Shown here one piece after another: positions 58,474 through 63,353 of a stretch of DNA of 64,000 bases. Both the position numbers and the translations under genes were made by a program. Where the stretch lies: NCBI GenBank assembly GCA_035524335.1, contig DATKPE010000033.1:36157-100156 (forward strand), read 5' to 3'. Origin of the DNA: Bacteroidota bacterium. Lineage in GTDB: Bacteria > Bacteroidota > Ignavibacteria > UBA10030 > SZUA-254. Positions within the stretch are counted from its first letter, which is position 1. Each line of letters opens with the position of its first letter. Below the pieces are notes generated by a model that saw only the letters and a program-made list of their open reading frames with translations, was not told where the DNA came from and did no database searches.

Positions 58474-59502
58474 TCAGGCGCGCGAGCGCGAGCTGGCGAT
58501 ATTGAGGCGTTTCAGCTTGTACCGGAGGGTCTGCTCGGTCATGCCGAGGAAACCGGCCGCCTTCGACTGGTTGAACCCGAATTTCTGCAGTGCCCGTTCG
58601 ATGATCCCCTTCTCGATCGCATCGAGAGACTTGTCCAGAATGAAATCCTGCCCGTTCTGGATGTTGTTGATCATCTTCACGACCTCGGTCTTTTCGTCGA
58701 CGAGTTCGGGCGGGAGCATGAACCGGCCGCCGTTGGAGAAGAGGACCGATTTATCGATGACCGCCTTCAGCTCGCGGATATTCTCCCGCCAGCTCTGGCG
58801 GACGAGGACGTCGATGGCGTTGATATCGATGACCAGTTCCCCGATGCCGATTTCGTGGCAGAGTTCGTTGGCGAAATGTTTCACGAGGAGCGGGATATCC
58901 TCGGGGCGTTCGCGGAGCGGCGGAATTTCGAGCCGTTCGAAGTCGCTCAGCTTGGTGAACAGTTCCTCGAGCAGTTTCCGTTTATCCACGAGCGACCGGG
59001 GGTCCTCCTTCAGGGTAAAGATCAGGCGGATATCGATCGGTTCGGACTGGGAACCGCCGATGCGGCTCGTGAGCCGTTCATTCAGGAAGGTGAGGATCTT
59101 CATCTGATTACGGAAGCTGGCTTCCTCGACCTCCTCGATGAGGACGGTCCCGCCGTTGGCGATTTCGAAGAGGCCCCGTTTGGTGGTATAGGGAAGTCCT
59201 TCCGCGCCGCGGTCAAATCCGAAGAGAACCGCTTCGAGCTCCTTATCATCGAGGACGGAGAGGTTGATCGACATGAACGGCGATTTCGACCCCTCGACGG
59301 CGCCGAGAGAGTAGATGTTTTTGGCGACGGCGCCCTTCCCGACGCCGGCCTCGCCGACGATGACCACGTCGTTGCGGTTTTTTGCAAGTCTGCCGATCTG
59401 TTTCAGCAGCTGCTCGACGGCCCGGCTCTTGCCGATAATCGGGTATTCCATCGATCCGCCCTTCGCTTCATCGGGTGATTTTACCTTCTTGTCTTTATCC
59501 AT
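58474..59502 (-). CDS. sigma-54-activator-family (bEBP-like) AAA+ ATPase with Fis-type HTH, lacking an N-terminal sensory/receiver domain
   Basis: Walker A VGEAGVGKGAVAKN and a Walker B-like GGTVLIEEVEEA (EE where DE is usual). The GAFTGA region reads FGFDRGAEGLPYTTKRGLFEIANGG. R-finger/sensor II region present. C-terminal HTH AAGFLGMTEQTLRYKLKRL. Start set at MDKDKK (59502). Confidence 0.7.
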   Translation of the reverse strand: MDKDKKVKSPDEAKGGSMEYPIIGKSRAVEQLLKQIGRLAKNRNDVVIVGEAGVGKGAVAKNIYSLGAVEGSKSPFMSINLSVLDDKELEAVLFGFDRGAEGLPYTTKRGLFEIANGGTVLIEEVEEASFRNQMKILTFLNERLTSRIGGSQSEPIDIRLIFTLKEDPRSLVDKRKLLEELFTKLSDFERLEIPPLRERPEDIPLLVKHFANELCHEIGIGELVIDINAIDVLVRQSWRENIRELKAVIDKSVLFSNGGRFMLPPELVDEKTEVVKMINNIQNGQDFILDKSLDAIEKGIIERALQKFGFNQSKAAGFLGMTEQTLRYKLKRLNIASSRSRA

Positions 59503-59540: not shown

Positions 59541-60668
59541 TTACTTGCCCTGTGAATTCTGGAACAGGCGCCCGTTGAAAAGCTTGAAATTGAAGAACCG
59601 CTCCAGGATGAGGTTGTCGACCCAATCCCGCCAGCGGCTGATCGTCTGCGGGTTGCTCGCCAGTTCCAGCTCGTAGAATTCGCCCTGCACCGAGGTAATG
59701 AACCGCAGACGGAGGACGAAGAACCAGACGATGAAGAACTCGACGAAAATCGTGACGTACTGGGAGACGGCGAACAGATCGGCGAATGAGGAAAATTCGA
59801 CGCTGTGGCTGAACCCCCAGTTATGGAGGATCTCCATCGACGAGAGGAGGAGGAACAGGAACATGATCTTGTCGATATACGCCCCCTGGGGCGGATCCTT
59901 CTTGAACTGGTAAAGGAAAAACAGCAGTATGAAGACGATGAAGAAGACGTTCATGTAGACGATGCTCATGTTCATCGGCTTCCAGAGCAGGATGATGTAG
60001 TTGTTGCCCGCAAGGTACGGCATCAGATATTCGATACGGCGGATATTCTGATCCGGGTAAAGATCGCCGACGGCGCGTCCGTCTTCCCACGACTGCAGTT
60101 TGACGGATCCGGCAAGCTGGATGGCCGAAGGGGTTTCCTTCGCGGGATCGACCGCCTGGTAGAGCGTCTTGAACTGCTTGATGTCCTGCGTCGAGTAGAG
60201 ATACAGCGGATCATGAAAATACGGCTGGAAGATCATCCAGCTGACGATGACCGAAAGGGCGATTGCGGCGAGATATTTCTGATAGATCCTCAGCTCGCGG
60301 AATATCTGATCGATCACGATGTAGCAGATGGCGAGCGACATGAAAACCTGGAATCCGATCAGGGTATACTGGTGCAGAATGTGGGTGGCGAATTTGTTCT
60401 CGGTGAAGATCGACACGCCGACGAAATCGAAGAAATAATGGCTGACCGAGACGGTGAACAGGAAGATAAAATTCAGGAAGATGAATTTATTTTTCGGATT
60501 CGGCTCACTGCGGTAAATCAAAACGGACAGAATGAGAAGCAGAATCTGAATAGCCCTGTTGAAAACGCCTTCGAGGTCGATCGGGTGGTGTGGAAACAGC
60601 ACCAGGGCCACGCAATAAACTGCGTGAAAAACAAGTAGAAAGAAAAATGCTTTGACAAGATTTTTCAT
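59541..60668 (-). CDS. hypothetical polytopic membrane protein (about 8 TM), first gene of the operon with the bEBP-like regulator
   Basis: 375 aa with hydrophobic helices throughout. Begins directly at an AT-rich promoter region and ends 38 nt upstream of the regulator gene. Its antisense ORF (59805..60638) is the acidic mirror translation. Confidence 0.55.
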   Translation of the reverse strand: MKNLVKAFFFLLVFHAVYCVALVLFPHHPIDLEGVFNRAIQILLLILSVLIYRSEPNPKNKFIFLNFIFLFTVSVSHYFFDFVGVSIFTENKFATHILHQYTLIGFQVFMSLAICYIVIDQIFRELRIYQKYLAAIALSVIVSWMIFQPYFHDPLYLYSTQDIKQFKTLYQAVDPAKETPSAIQLAGSVKLQSWEDGRAVGDLYPDQNIRRIEYLMPYLAGNNYIILLWKPMNMSIVYMNVFFIVFILLFFLYQFKKDPPQGAYIDKIMFLFLLLSSMEILHNWGFSHSVEFSSFADLFAVSQYVTIFVEFFIVWFFVLRLRFITSVQGEFYELELASNPQTISRWRDWVDNLILERFFNFKLFNGRLFQNSQGK

Positions 60669-60954
60669 AAGTAAAGACCGGGTACGAAGTCCGATCCCTC
60701 GTTTTGTTTAAATTTATCGCTTTTTTGAACAAATGTCAATAGCATTCGCAATTTTTTTTCTATATGCTCAAATCTGTGATTCGCAACACGCCATAATATT
60801 CGTGATATTTTTTCAGAATAAAATAGCAAAATTCTTGCGAATTTTCACATAATATCGTAACTTGTCCTTGGAGTTTTTCCCCTCATTACCCCTTTAATGC
60901 GAATATACAAAAATATTTTTCATAATCAATTAATTAAATCCGAGGAGAGTTACC
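60669..60954. promoter_or_regulatory. AT-rich divergent intergenic region with repeated octamer ATTCGCAA / TTGCGAAT
   Basis: 286 bp, visibly AT-rich. ATTCGCAA at 60744-60751 and 60779-60786, inverted TTGCGAAT at 60835-60842, and a 7/8 inverted copy ATGCGAAT at 60897-60904. SD-like GGAGAG precedes the downstream small ORF. Confidence 0.45.
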
Positions 60955-61197
60955 ATGACTGCCATCACACGTCGTAATGCAAAGCGGATCGGATCCCTTC
61001 TGATCGCTTTACTGATCGTTCTTGTGACCAATATCGCCATCTCCCTGGCCGATAACGCACGCACGCTCGATCCGAACAATCCGATCTACGGTTCGCCCCG
61101 TCCCAAGACGCTCGATCCGAATAATCCGATCTATGGCTCGCCCCGTCCCAAGACGCTCGATCCGAACAATCCGATCTACGGTTCACCGCGCCCGTAA
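60955..61197 (+). CDS. small (80 aa) signal-peptide/membrane-anchor protein with three tandem copies of TLDPNNPIYGSPRP separated by Lys
   Basis: GGAGAG 7 nt upstream of ATG. N-region RRNAKR, hydrophobic IGSLLIALLIVLVTNIAISLA, then DNAR-TLDPNNPIYGSPRP-K-TLDPNNPIYGSPRP-K-TLDPNNPIYGSPRP-stop. All inter-repeat nucleotide differences are synonymous. Confidence 0.55.
   Translation: MTAITRRNAKRIGSLLIALLIVLVTNIAISLADNARTLDPNNPIYGSPRPKTLDPNNPIYGSPRPKTLDPNNPIYGSPRP
61063..61197 (+). repeat. 3 x 45-bp tandem coding repeat inside the small ORF
   Basis: Copies at 61063-61107, 61108-61152 and 61153-61197. They differ only at third codon positions: aac/aat, tac/tat, ggt/ggc, tcg/tca, ccc/ccg, cgt/cgc, ccc/ccg. 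Confidence 0.9.
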
Positions 61198-61245
61198 GGC
61201 ACGGCCCGCGGCATTTGCCGCGCGTTCGGTAACTCCATAATTGAT

Positions 61246-61287
61246 ACACCCCGCCTGCGGTCCGCCGCGGACGGGGTGTTTTTTTTC
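61246..61287 (+). terminator. strong Rho-independent terminator downstream of the repeat-peptide ORF
   Basis: ACACCCCG - loop containing the nested TCCGC/GCGGA pair - CGGGGTGT, followed by T8 (TTTTTTTT). Confidence 0.7.
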
Positions 61288-61345
61288 CCGGGACTCCGAT
61301 TACCATTTCTCGTGATTTTTTTTTATTTTTCCCTGAAATACCTCC

Positions 61346-62347
61346 ATGGAGCCCGTCTACCCATCAGATCCGACCACTTTCAGCTGGCAGGGACAACCAC
61401 CCCCGCCTCCACGGCCATGGAAATCGTACCTCTTCCATGCGTCGCTCTTCCTTCTGACGTTCATCACCACAACACTCGCGGGCGTCCTATGGCTCCTGAA
61501 AGACCCGTTTGAACTGTCCAATTTCCCTGCGGGATTTCCCTATTCCCTCAGTCTCCTGGCAATCCTCACGGCCCACGAATTCGGGCATTACTTTGCGGCG
61601 CGACGCTACCATATTCCGACCACCCTCCCCTACTTCATCCCGATGCCGCCGTTTCTCATCAACCTTTTCGGCACCATGGGGGCGGTGATCAGGATCAGGG
61701 GGGCGATCGGAACCAGAAAACAGCTCTTCGACATCGGCGCCGCCGGACCGATCGCGGGTCTTATCGTTACCCTGGGTGTCCTCGCCCTCGGCATGGCGAC
61801 GCTTCCCCCGATCAGCTATCTGTACGGAATACATCCCGAATATATCGGCCTTTCTGCAATCCCCAACGGAGGGCTGACCTTCGGCTCCTCTCTCTTCTTC
61901 CGCGGGTTTCTCCGCCTGTTCGCACACGGCCGGTTTATTCCCCCCATGAATGAAATTTACCATTATCCCTATCTCTGCGTCGGCTGGTTCGGCCTGTTCA
62001 TCACCGCGATGAACCTGATCCCCGTCGGCCAGCTGGATGGCGGCCATATCCTCTATTCCATGGTCGGACGCCGGCAGGGGCTGATCGCGAAAATCTGCTT
62101 CGGCATACTCATCCTGATCGGCCTCGTGGCGTTCATTCCCGCATTCGGTTCCCATATTCAGCTGGGGACCCTCGGCTGGCTCATTTTCGCCGTCATCCTG
62201 TTTTTCGTCATCAAGCTCAATCACCCCGAAATCCACGATCCGGAACCTCTCGACTCATCGCGAACCTTCCTCGGATGGATTCTCATGGCCCTCTTCATCC
62301 TCATTTTCACCCCGGTGCCGTTCTATGAAATCTCCCCGGCACCTTGA
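61346..62347 (+). CDS. site-2 protease family (peptidase M50) intramembrane zinc metalloprotease, no PDZ domain
   Basis: HExxH inside a TM helix (LAILTAHEFGHYFAARRY) and the second S2P motif NLIPVGQLDGGHIL. Multiple TM helices. Confidence 0.8.
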   Translation: MEPVYPSDPTTFSWQGQPPPPPRPWKSYLFHASLFLLTFITTTLAGVLWLLKDPFELSNFPAGFPYSLSLLAILTAHEFGHYFAARRYHIPTTLPYFIPMPPFLINLFGTMGAVIRIRGAIGTRKQLFDIGAAGPIAGLIVTLGVLALGMATLPPISYLYGIHPEYIGLSAIPNGGLTFGSSLFFRGFLRLFAHGRFIPPMNEIYHYPYLCVGWFGLFITAMNLIPVGQLDGGHILYSMVGRRQGLIAKICFGILILIGLVAFIPAFGSHIQLGTLGWLIFAVILFFVIKLNHPEIHDPEPLDSSRTFLGWILMALFILIFTPVPFYEISPAP

Positions 62348-62471: not shown

Positions 62472-63353
62472 ATGCGTCGCACCATTTCCACCGTTCTGAT
62501 CCCCCGGGTGTTCCGGACGATATCCCCATACCGCCGGATTCTTCCTGTCGTCATACTTGTGGTCGCGGGACTGGCAGGCTGCCGGCGCGAGTATTCCGGT
62601 ACGCTCGACCCGCCCCTCACCGCGCCGTATCTGTATCAGGCGCAGATCGGGGTCTCGCTCGTCGATCTCGATACCTCCTCCGCATCCGTCGTAAAACAGA
62701 TTTCGCCCGGGACCTACGAGATCACCGATTCTCTTTCCGCCGTGGTGCTCGATCCGGTGAGCGGAGACGATATCACCTCCTGCACCTACAGCGTCACGTC
62801 GCCGGGCATCTCGACGCCTTTTCTCACAGGGAACCTGAACCGGATCTCGGTGTCGTCCAATCAGGCGAATTTCAGCACGAAGTTTGCCTTCCTCGTCCGG
62901 CGCGACCAGATAGGTCCGTACATTATCGAAATCGACGCCTCAGGGCAGGCAGGGTATGTCGCGAATGCCCGACGGGTCACCCTCTCTATTATCAGAAACG
63001 ACGCCCGGCCGGTCATCTCGAATCTCCTCGCACCCGACACCCTGGTCCGGCCGCAATCCGGTTCCCGGATGGTCCGTCTCGCCATTTCGGCCTCCGATTC
63101 GGACGGCCTCGGCGACATCGTCAAAGTTTTCTTCCGGAGCATCAACTCCACCTCCCCCGATTTTGAACAACCGATGTTCGACGACGGGAATCTGGCGGTG
63201 GACGGTGATTCCGTTGCGGGCGACGGCCGCTATGCCAGACTTCTGCCGCTCGATTCAACGGCCACGGCGGGAATCAAGGAATTTCGCTTTTTCGCGCGCG
63301 ACAAAGCGGGAGCGGTGAGCGATTCAATCGTCCATTATATCGTCATCCAATGA
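62472..63353 (+). CDS. hypothetical lipoprotein (beta-rich)
   Basis: Lipobox VVAGLAGC after a hydrophobic stretch. Ser/Thr/Val-rich beta-strand-like composition. Its stop overlaps the start of the next gene (ATGA). Confidence 0.5.
   Translation: MRRTISTVLIPRVFRTISPYRRILPVVILVVAGLAGCRREYSGTLDPPLTAPYLYQAQIGVSLVDLDTSSASVVKQISPGTYEITDSLSAVVLDPVSGDDITSCTYSVTSPGISTPFLTGNLNRISVSSNQANFSTKFAFLVRRDQIGPYIIEIDASGQAGYVANARRVTLSIIRNDARPVISNLLAPDTLVRPQSGSRMVRLAISASDSDGLGDIVKVFFRSINSTSPDFEQPMFDDGNLAVDGDSVAGDGRYARLLPLDSTATAGIKEFRFFARDKAGAVSDSIVHYIVIQ

Follow-up and report, generated by a model that had tools for sequence, protein, structure and literature searches.

The window analysed here, a stretch of 64,000 nucleotides taken as a whole, carries two divergent operons separated by a gap that is markedly poor in GC (0.32, vs ~0.55-0.62 in the flanks; Table 1). 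The gap lies between two start codons, the ATG at 60668 of a minus-strand gene for a membrane protein and the ATG at 60955 of a plus-strand peptide gene, bearing out, in coordinates as in composition, the AT-rich 286-bp island between divergent operons that a previous sequence-only reading had described. The membrane protein is listed in databases as hypothetical and matched no Pfam or NCBIfam family. The regulator gene lies 38 nt downstream of it; its longest open reading frame opens with a TTG, but the likely start is the ATG at 59502. On the opposite side, the peptide and M50 peptidase genes are followed by a third plus-strand gene, encoding a putative lipoprotein.

Table 1. Genes, predicted promoters and candidate elements at the locus. 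Map positions are given in the orientation of the membrane-protein gene, the first T of TTGACA being position 0; promoter coordinates are approximate and relative to the predicted transcription starts.
Feature	Window position	Strand	Map position	Promoter coordinate	Remarks
AAA+ (Sigma54_activat, AAA_lid) + HTH_8 regulator	58474-59502	-			342 aa, no N-terminal sensor domain
Membrane protein	59541-60668	-			375 aa, ~8 transmembrane helices; first gene of operon
Control region between divergent operons	60669-60954				286 bp, GC 0.32
Predicted -10 TAAATT, membrane-protein/regulator operon	60711-60716	-	23 to 28	-12 to -7	TATATT in orthologs; 17-nt spacer; identity 0.97
Variable 17-nt spacer			6 to 22
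Predicted -35 TTGACA, membrane-protein/regulator operon	60734-60739	-	0 to 5	-35 to -30	Preceded by five variable bases; identity 0.99 across 25 orthologs
Octamer copy 1, TTGCGAA(T) box	60744-60751	-	-12 to -6 (TTGCGAA)	~-47 to -41	5 nt upstream of -35
A-tract ATATAGAAAAAAAA (TATATAAAAAAATAT in orthologs)	60752-60765	-	-25 to -13	~-60 to -48	Resembles UP element
T-run CTTTTT			-35 to -31	-70 to -66
Proximal dyad GTG-N8-CAC	60776-60789		centre -44.5	-79.5 (membrane start), -86.5 (peptide start)	14 bp; spacing equal to GTGA-N6-TCAC; G/T/G and TCAC invariant or nearly
Octamer copy 2	60779-60786				Fills the 8-nt variable spacer of the proximal dyad exactly
Distal dyad GTGAAAA-N-TTTTCAC, then GAA	60798-60816		centre -71	~-106 (membrane start), ~-60 (peptide start)	Degenerate here, CTGAAAAAATATCAC+GAA; holds quasi-copy ATTCGTGA
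Octamer copy 3	60835-60842	+			TTGCGA is the predicted peptide-operon -35 hexamer
Predicted -35 TTGCGA, peptide operon	from 60835	+	T at -96 (AAATTCTTGnnn, other strand)		First six bases of octamer copy 3; preceded by conserved AAATTC
Predicted -10 TAACTT, peptide operon	60858-60863	+	~-124 to -119 (TAAnTT, other strand)		17-nt spacer; TA..(T)T kept at fixed spacing
Octamer copy 4, 7/8 match ATGCGAAT	60897-60904	+			~28 nt into predicted peptide 5' UTR
Shine-Dalgarno GAGGAG, peptide gene	60942-60947	+
Peptide precursor	60955-61197	+			80 aa; N-terminal hydrophobic segment ending AISLA, then 3 x KTLDPNNPIYGSPRP
Peptidase M50 (site-2-protease family) membrane protein	61346-62347	+

The gap contains a repeated octamer. 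ATTCGCAA is found at 60744-60751 and 60779-60786, both on the plus strand, its reverse complement TTGCGAAT at 60835-60842, and a 7/8 match, ATGCGAAT, at 60897-60904. The sequence-only reading had placed all four copies exactly, and had overlooked a fifth, degenerate one (ATTCGTGA, 60798-60805). The three exact copies all lie in the gap and none elsewhere in the window, for which 2.9 are expected; a 20-nt inverted repeat, 80% complementary, embeds copies 1 and 3. Chance was assessed with 5000 dinucleotide-preserving shuffles of the 286-bp gap, counting 8-mers on both strands. Some 8-mer, chiefly an A/T run, occurred at least three times in 18% of shuffles; among 8-mers with two or more G/C, the figure fell to 1.6%. 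The repetition, once held to be very unlikely by chance, is thus unusual for a G/C-containing word and less extreme than had been implied when any 8-mer is counted. It is real and moderately unlikely by chance, and alone it is not decisive. A known structured RNA in the gap was ruled out, since an Rfam scan of 60300-61400 (E ≤ 10) returned matches at noise level, with a top score of 20.6 bits vs a gathering threshold of 60 and all E ≥ 0.3.

Orthologous loci were collected with the membrane protein as query. A genome collection yielded 27 loci at 37-59% identity, all of them (27/27) from MAGs labelled Ignavibacteria, Ignavibacteriales, Chlorobiaceae or Bacteroidota. Scanning metagenomes added 30 further loci, with one 100%-identical contig followed only by loci at ≤55%, and a protein search with contig look-ups brought closer relatives at 83%, 61%, 58%, 58% and 57% identity, L058 being the closest found (83% protein identity). 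The resulting orthologous set comprises ~45 loci from Ignavibacteria-like MAGs. Synteny extends over all five genes in ~22 genome loci, and in metagenome loci besides. Nearly every locus that reaches far enough has the genes for the membrane protein and the regulator to one side of the gap and those for the repeat peptide, the M50 protease and the lipoprotein to the other, although L006 and L007 have no adjacent M50 gene.

When anchored on TTGACA, ~170 bp of the gaps align without gaps or indels across 25 non-redundant loci of widely ranging GC. On both strands there are -35 and -10 hexamers at the 16-18 nt spacing of sigma-70-type promoters, and in the minus-strand promoter the hexamers are conserved as the spacer drifts. 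This promoter (TTGACA-17-TAAATT) matches the consensus at 10/12 positions, with a predicted transcription start near 60704 (minus strand). The plus-strand TTGCGA-17-TAACTT is weaker and falls under the threshold of a consensus scanner; its predicted start lies near 60870 (plus strand), and its TTG and TA..T hold a fixed spacing in orthologs. The two predicted -35 elements are exactly 96 bp apart. The gap therefore reads as a deeply conserved, back-to-back pair of predicted sigma-70-type promoters with fixed geometry, and its earlier description as a divergent control region agrees with the presence of such promoters in the orthologous gaps. The box was also considered as the -35 of a second promoter, and this was rejected because no conserved -10 hexamer lies 17 nt downstream.

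Mean pairwise identity, computed element by element across the 25 orthologs, was 0.99 for the -35 and 0.97 for the -10 of the membrane-operon promoter, 0.85 for the A-tract with the box, 0.63 for the proximal dyad with the T-run and 0.57 for the distal dyad. The 17-nt spacer of the same promoter reached 0.37, vs 0.30 expected from base composition. With the spacer this close to the neutral level, neutral positions must be saturated, and the remaining conserved elements are therefore under selection. A profile of the block (nhmmer, 135 nt) gave a single match at each locus and none besides in 460 kb, and the pattern YTGCG-N6-TTGAC marks the membrane-operon promoter in 40 loci, with two other matches in the 460 kb that are probably due to chance. 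We thus rejected the block as a general promoter style of these genomes; it is confined to this locus, which makes the architecture a property of this gene pair. Indel-free geometry across a deep clade usually indicates a stereospecific protein-DNA complex. As DNA, the region is an object of a normal kind, a divergent promoter region with operator-like sites, of which it provides a new and well-footprinted example: the map comprises both predicted promoters and four or five candidate protein-binding elements.

Among these elements, the dyads stand out by their words. Family-wide, the word with the highest enrichment in orthologous gaps is AGGAG, and the strongest words other than ribosome-binding sites come from the dyad arms (ATCAC, 41 vs 13.4 expected; GGTGA, 27 vs 7.9). 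For words of the octamer other than those in the box the excess is modest (TCGCAA, 15 vs 6.2 expected, z 3.7; TCGCA, 26 vs 15.2). The proximal dyad takes the form (T/C)GTGA-N6-(A/G)TCAC, which we take to be a CRP-type half-site and spacing; compared with the CRP/FNR-type TGTGA-N6-TCACA, its arms and spacing match, whereas the distal dyad has N7 instead. Between GTG and CAC the two dyads have N8 and N9, respectively, an awkward fit to a single rigid dimer. Of the dyad centres relative to the two predicted starts (-79.5 and -106; -60 and -86.5), the -60 site alone matches a textbook Class I position. A look for covariation between the dyad arms found a symmetric change in L043 (ATG...CAT) and one-sided changes in L032 and L042. 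The UP element, an A/T-rich tract at -40 to -60 that contacts alpha-CTD, offers a second comparison: the A-tract at -60 to -48 fits it, but the box at -47 to -41, with its invariant C, G and A, does not. ACGAAT was rejected as a conserved element of the membrane-gene 5' UTR, being limited to a subset of loci.

The copies of the octamer have had different fates. Copy 1 forms the core of a box that stands at a fixed place, and hardly varies, in ~40 orthologous promoters; its T.CGA is invariant in an alignment of 18 sequences (A2), and a distant clade carries CTGCG in its place. For copy 3, AATTCTTGCGAA shows no variation among the six genomes of the sub-clade to which the window belongs, in each of which TTGCGA-N17-TA(A/T)A(C/T)T can be read, and ATTCGCAAGAATT (copy 3) is invariant together with TGCGAA (copy 1) in the sub-clade alignment, at 57-83% protein identity. 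Outside the sub-clade only AAATTCTTG is kept, the last three bases of the hexamer being variable. Copies 1 and 3, inverted relative to each other and facing outwards, bracket the region. Copy 2 is common to L058 only and absent from the 57-61% relatives in the sub-clade alignment; L010 has a similar TTGCGAT in the dyad spacer, which we take to have arisen independently. The ATTCGC of copy 4 is likewise kept in L058 only, and is missing from relatives at 57-61% identity and from more distant ones. A conserved (T/C)ACGAA (TCACGAA in the alignment) that flanks the distal dyad is the counterpart of the quasi-copy ATTCGTGA in the orthologs. Copies 2 and 4 appear to be young, lineage-specific repeats of the octamer word.

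The sequence-only reading had taken the octamer for a probable binding motif and named conservation in orthologous regions as a check. By that check copy 1 is a selected element, copy 3 is conserved within the sub-clade, and copies 2 and 4 fail past the 83% relative; one or two of the four copies are thus part of the conserved layout. Four equivalent octamer sites are not supported: two are unconserved, and enrichment of the words outside the box is modest, with the dyad arms far stronger. The distant clade has three TGCG-containing sites around its two promoters, with two TGCG(A) words beyond the box near the peptide promoter. The enrichment of octamer words outside the box is ~2-fold across the family and partly reflects shared ancestry.

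HMMER alignments placed GAEGLP of the regulator opposite the GAFTGA of NifA, NtrC1 and ZraR, and a G(A/V/T)EG(L/M)P-type replacement is found in 25/25 aligned orthologs. GAFTGA is essential for contact with sigma-54, and TyrR, DhaR and HupR, which lack it, use sigma-70 (PMC3162934). Since the motif is replaced in all aligned orthologs, the regulator is, judging from its sequence, most likely a sigma-54-independent AAA+ protein of the TyrR/DhaR/VpsR kind. It combines the three marks of an atypical EBP, i.e. a Sigma54_activat core, a C-terminal HTH and a defective GAFTGA (PMC3162934). In Walker B it has EE in place of DE, so its ATPase activity is uncertain, and no equivalog model matched it at cut-off. 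NtrX is a further sigma-70-dependent EBP homologue with a defective GAFTGA. The label of sigma-54-dependent regulator that the domains suggest is corrected by the family-wide loss of GAFTGA beside sigma-70-type promoters. The regulator is also the best conserved protein compared, with a median ortholog identity of 81% vs 51% for the membrane protein, 58% for the protease and 31% for the lipoprotein, and its HTH is nearly invariant, which would fit an equally conserved DNA target. We looked for a change of the recognition helix that matched the box variant: the distant clade, with its CTGCG, differs by one L->F, presumably at a core-facing position by analogy with Fis, and the comparison was uninformative.

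A scan for the GG at -24 and GC at -12 of sigma-54 promoters (TGGCAC-N5-TTGC) found no GG-N10-GC on either strand of 60640-60990, and in 34 orthologous gaps the 18 matches are scattered, low-scoring and never at a shared position. The candidate put forward in the sequence-only reading, TAGCA-N6-TTGCG at 60824-60839, does have the right spacing, with AG where GG is needed, as had been stated; it is no GG site, and its AG stands opposite unrelated bases in the A2 orthologs. A minus-strand look-alike at 60840 matches 10/12 positions with CG in place of GG. The dyads, at ~-79.5 and -106, precede a predicted sigma-70-type promoter, unlike the upstream activating sequence of a bEBP, whose dyads lie some 80-150 bp ahead of a sigma-54 promoter.

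We think it fairly probable that the gap is a bidirectional sigma-70-type promoter region whose conserved elements would be bound by the co-encoded regulator in an autoregulatory loop. Under this scheme the near-consensus TTGACA-N17-TAAATT on the minus strand would drive the membrane-protein/regulator operon, and the weaker TTGCGA-N17-TAACTT on the plus strand the repeat-peptide/M50-protease operon. Between the two -35s lie two operator-like dyads, the A-tract and, adjoining the minus-strand -35, the TTGCGAA box; the octamer is the core of the box (copy 1) and, in the sub-clade, also the predicted -35 of the opposite promoter (copy 3). The AAA+/Fis-HTH protein, presumably unable to contact sigma-54 because of its lost GAFTGA, would bind these elements and act together with sigma-70 RNA polymerase, in a VpsR-like way at the box and, at the distal dyad, from ~-60 of the weak peptide promoter, a classical activator position. 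In such a feedback the regulator would tune its own strong promoter and activate the weak peptide promoter, and the outcome would be an autoregulatory loop in which peptide production is coupled to the expression of the regulator operon. That the regulator binds the octamer, the box or the dyads is plausible; since all of them are found together at every locus, their joint presence cannot tell which element it binds. The proximal dyad, with its CRP/FNR-type geometry, may belong to an unlinked global regulator or to another protein.

Known systems offer precedents for parts of this scheme. VpsR of Vibrio cholerae is, like the regulator here, an AAA+ EBP homologue without the residues that contact sigma-54, and its target, as the promoters here by prediction, is of the sigma-70 type. 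Its footprint at PvpsL spans -31 to -53, and it has been proposed to be a Class II activator with sigma-70 RNA polymerase (PMC6158489). That footprint covers the zone occupied here by the box and part of the A-tract (-60 to -41). However, VpsR has a receiver domain and needs c-di-GMP, whereas the regulator here lacks a sensor domain and has a membrane protein as its partner gene product; the sequences of the VpsR site and of the putative site here are unrelated. TyrR, DhaR and HupR share with our regulator a Sigma54_activat-type core, a C-terminal HTH and the loss of GAFTGA (PMC3162934). They differ in that the regulator here has no ACT, PAS or receiver domain, and the dyads are GTG-N8/N9-CAC. 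Regulators of the TyrR/DhaR/HupR type recognise dyads, e.g. the TyrR box TGTAAA-N6-TTTACA. In its domain composition our regulator resembles PspF-type EBPs, which consist of AAA+ and HTH only; since it has no N-terminal regulatory domain, control in trans by a separate membrane-associated partner is plausible by analogy with PspF. Yet PspF has GAFTGA and acts on sigma-54 promoters, and its partner is PspA-like, whereas the candidate partner here is a polytopic membrane protein.

It is also possible, though in our judgement unlikely, that both predicted promoters are real and that no dedicated protein recognises the octamer. The box would then be a contact of RNA polymerase itself (alpha-CTD or sigma region 4, UP-like), copy 3 a variant of the -35 in the sub-clade, and copies 2 and 4 products of chance or slippage in AT-rich DNA. 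The box is indeed contiguous with the conserved A-tract in the UP-element zone, and its surroundings (AAATATTTG...) resemble the context of the peptide -35 (AAATTCTTG...), but UP elements are A/T-rich, unlike the invariant C, G and A found here. In the same direction, copy 3 sits exactly at the -35 with TTG alone kept outside the sub-clade, and copies 2 and 4 are unconserved; against this, an exact octamer fills the 8-nt spacer of the proximal dyad, L010 has TTGCGAT there, in our view independently, and the distant clade surrounds its two promoters with three TGCG-containing sites. The shuffles cut both ways, a triple 8-mer of some kind being common enough for chance and a G/C-containing one much less so.

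A binder other than the co-encoded regulator seems distinctly improbable for the dyads. They would be sites of an unlinked CRP/FNR-family or other global regulator, the AAA+ protein would bind elsewhere or only TGCGAA words, and global and local signals would be integrated in the gap. The presumed CRP-type form of the proximal dyad points this way, as do its being the sole operator-like element kept in close and distant clades and the enrichment of dyad-arm words above all others but the ribosome-binding sites. The conserved block, however, occurs at this locus alone in 460 kb, the distal dyad has N7, not N6, between GTGA and TCAC, the site centres fit Class I phasing poorly, and no CRP-family gene is linked. 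As for the suggestion that the octamers are an upstream activating sequence from which the adjacent bEBP activates a sigma-54 promoter at TAGCA-N6-TTGCG, it draws on the Pfam assignment of the neighbouring regulator (Sigma54_activat + HTH_8), the correct spacing of that candidate and the 10/12 look-alike on the minus strand, but we reject it, and give it next to no chance of being right, because there is no canonical or conserved site, GG at -24 is missing on both strands, GAFTGA is lost in the regulator and its orthologs, and conserved -35/-10 pairs explain both directions.

Returning to the autoregulatory reading, the genes flanking the predicted promoters allow a wider one. The AlphaFold2 model of the membrane protein (pLDDT 84.5, pTM 0.81) has ~8 transmembrane helices and, after helix 5, an insert of ~70 residues; its C-terminal tail is conserved. 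Judged by the positive-inside rule, the insert would be exposed outside and the tail would be cytoplasmic. The predicted fold resembles most closely GPCR-type 7TM bundles, a likeness of fold and not evidence of homology. A permissive Pfam scan of 40 homologues of the membrane protein gave one faint match to 7TMR-DISM_7TM (E 3.8e-4) and nothing consistent. In the peptide precursor, the segment ending in AISLA is, by inspection, a putative Sec signal peptide. A secreted repeat peptide, an M50 protease and a receptor-like membrane protein permit a peptide-signalling circuit and do not prove it. There is a precedent in Firmicutes, where Eep and other M50 proteases mature peptide pheromones (PMC10202637, PMC3150281). 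At its fullest, the gap would be the control hub of an undescribed circuit across Ignavibacteria-like Bacteroidota, with a species-specific repeat peptide, processing aided by the M50 protease, sensing by the membrane protein, control of the sensor-less regulator, and feedback through the TGCGAA box and the dyads on both operons. We offer this as a tentative model whose chances, taken whole, are low. If it were a true cell-cell signalling system, it would be unusual for the Bacteroidota/Chlorobi group. The module itself (secreted tandem-repeat peptide, M50 protease, membrane protein of receptor-like fold, AAA+ regulator) has no characterised member, and it is this, along with the rigid architecture and the corrected annotation of the regulator, that gives the locus its interest.

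A parallel in layout comes from autoregulated peptide-signalling loci of Gram-positive bacteria such as shp/rgg, where, as here, a gene for a small secreted peptide diverges from a regulator gene across a shared control region, and where Eep, an M50 protease, takes part in pheromone maturation (PMC10202637, PMC3150281). They belong to another phylum, however, and their regulator is an RRNPP protein; the locus described here would instead use an AAA+ protein and a membrane protein of predicted receptor-like fold, and its peptide is a multi-copy tandem precursor. Every peptide ortholog has a conserved N-terminal hydrophobic segment ending ...N(I/F)AIS(Y/F)A and a tandem unit, usually in 3-5 copies of 11-15 residues, although L022 is without a clear repeat. 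Units are nearly identical within a precursor and differ between genomes. Most of them end in PRP or PKP, as a rule with K or R next, and L015 (PFP) is an exception.

The gene on the plus-strand side of the control gap looks, from its sequence, like one for a multi-copy pro-peptide. The 80-aa precursor starts with a hydrophobic segment ending in AISLA, by inspection only a putative Sec signal peptide, which is followed by three copies of KTLDPNNPIYGSPRP. The comparison covered the orthologs of loci L002-L026, L058 (the closest relative found) and L060. A homologous N-terminus and tandem copies of a unit were found in nearly all of them, the copies being near-identical inside one gene and different from genome to genome (for example STVPLLPDSPRPK, SGVATIPDMPRPK and SGIGMLPGNTPRPK). 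PRP or PKP is the commonest end of the unit; in L015 it is PFP, and in L022 a clear repeat was not seen. The precursor matched no family in Pfam or NCBIfam.

Coordinates of the features discussed
Feature	Position	Strand	Note
Protein with T9SS-like C-terminus, 1227 aa	52704-56387	+	C-terminal pattern of T9SS (Por) sorting domain
EBP-like regulator	58474-59502	-	AAA+ and HTH_8
Repeat-peptide precursor gene	60955-61197	+	hydrophobic N-terminal segment, then tandem repeats
Strong terminator-like hairpin	61246-61286	+	ACACCCCG...CGGGGTGT then T7; between peptide and M50 protease genes
Peptidase_M50 gene	61346-62347	+	downstream of peptide gene
Putative lipoprotein gene	62472-63353	+	downstream of peptide gene

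In most orthologous loci, Peptidase_M50 and putative lipoprotein genes come after the peptide gene. In the window, the terminator-like hairpin between the peptide gene and the M50 protease gene suggests that the peptide transcript would far exceed any transcript reading through into the protease. Two loci, L006 and L007, have no adjacent M50 gene; its place is taken by a 490-aa protein of unassigned family, whose C-terminus resembles, by eye only, the T9SS sorting tail of other window proteins.

In a distant clade (L016-L018, L025, L048 and L050), the predicted peptide promoter reads TTGACA-TTCAATTGCGACTATAT-TATATT-TTCTGCGAG. Its -10 is flanked by two TGCGA words at a distance of 20 nt from each other, and the TTCTGCG word on this side is also the box (the element just upstream of the -35) of the opposite promoter. 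This clade is an independent instance of a TGCG-type word recurring at both predicted promoters.

The EBP-like regulator has no sensor domain; GAEGLP stands where GAFTGA, the loop needed for sigma-54 contact, is expected, and Walker B has EE, not DE. With a single exception, the full-length orthologs in the comparison show 71-86% identity, and conservation of the regulator is far higher than that of the neighbouring genes. Its longest ORF begins with TTG at 59625 and runs into the upstream gene, which makes ATG at 59502 the more probable start codon.

The C-terminus of the 1227-aa protein, whose L058 ortholog matches Por_Secre_tail and, faintly, Sortilin/BNR, fits a Bacteroidota/Ignavibacteria origin of the window.
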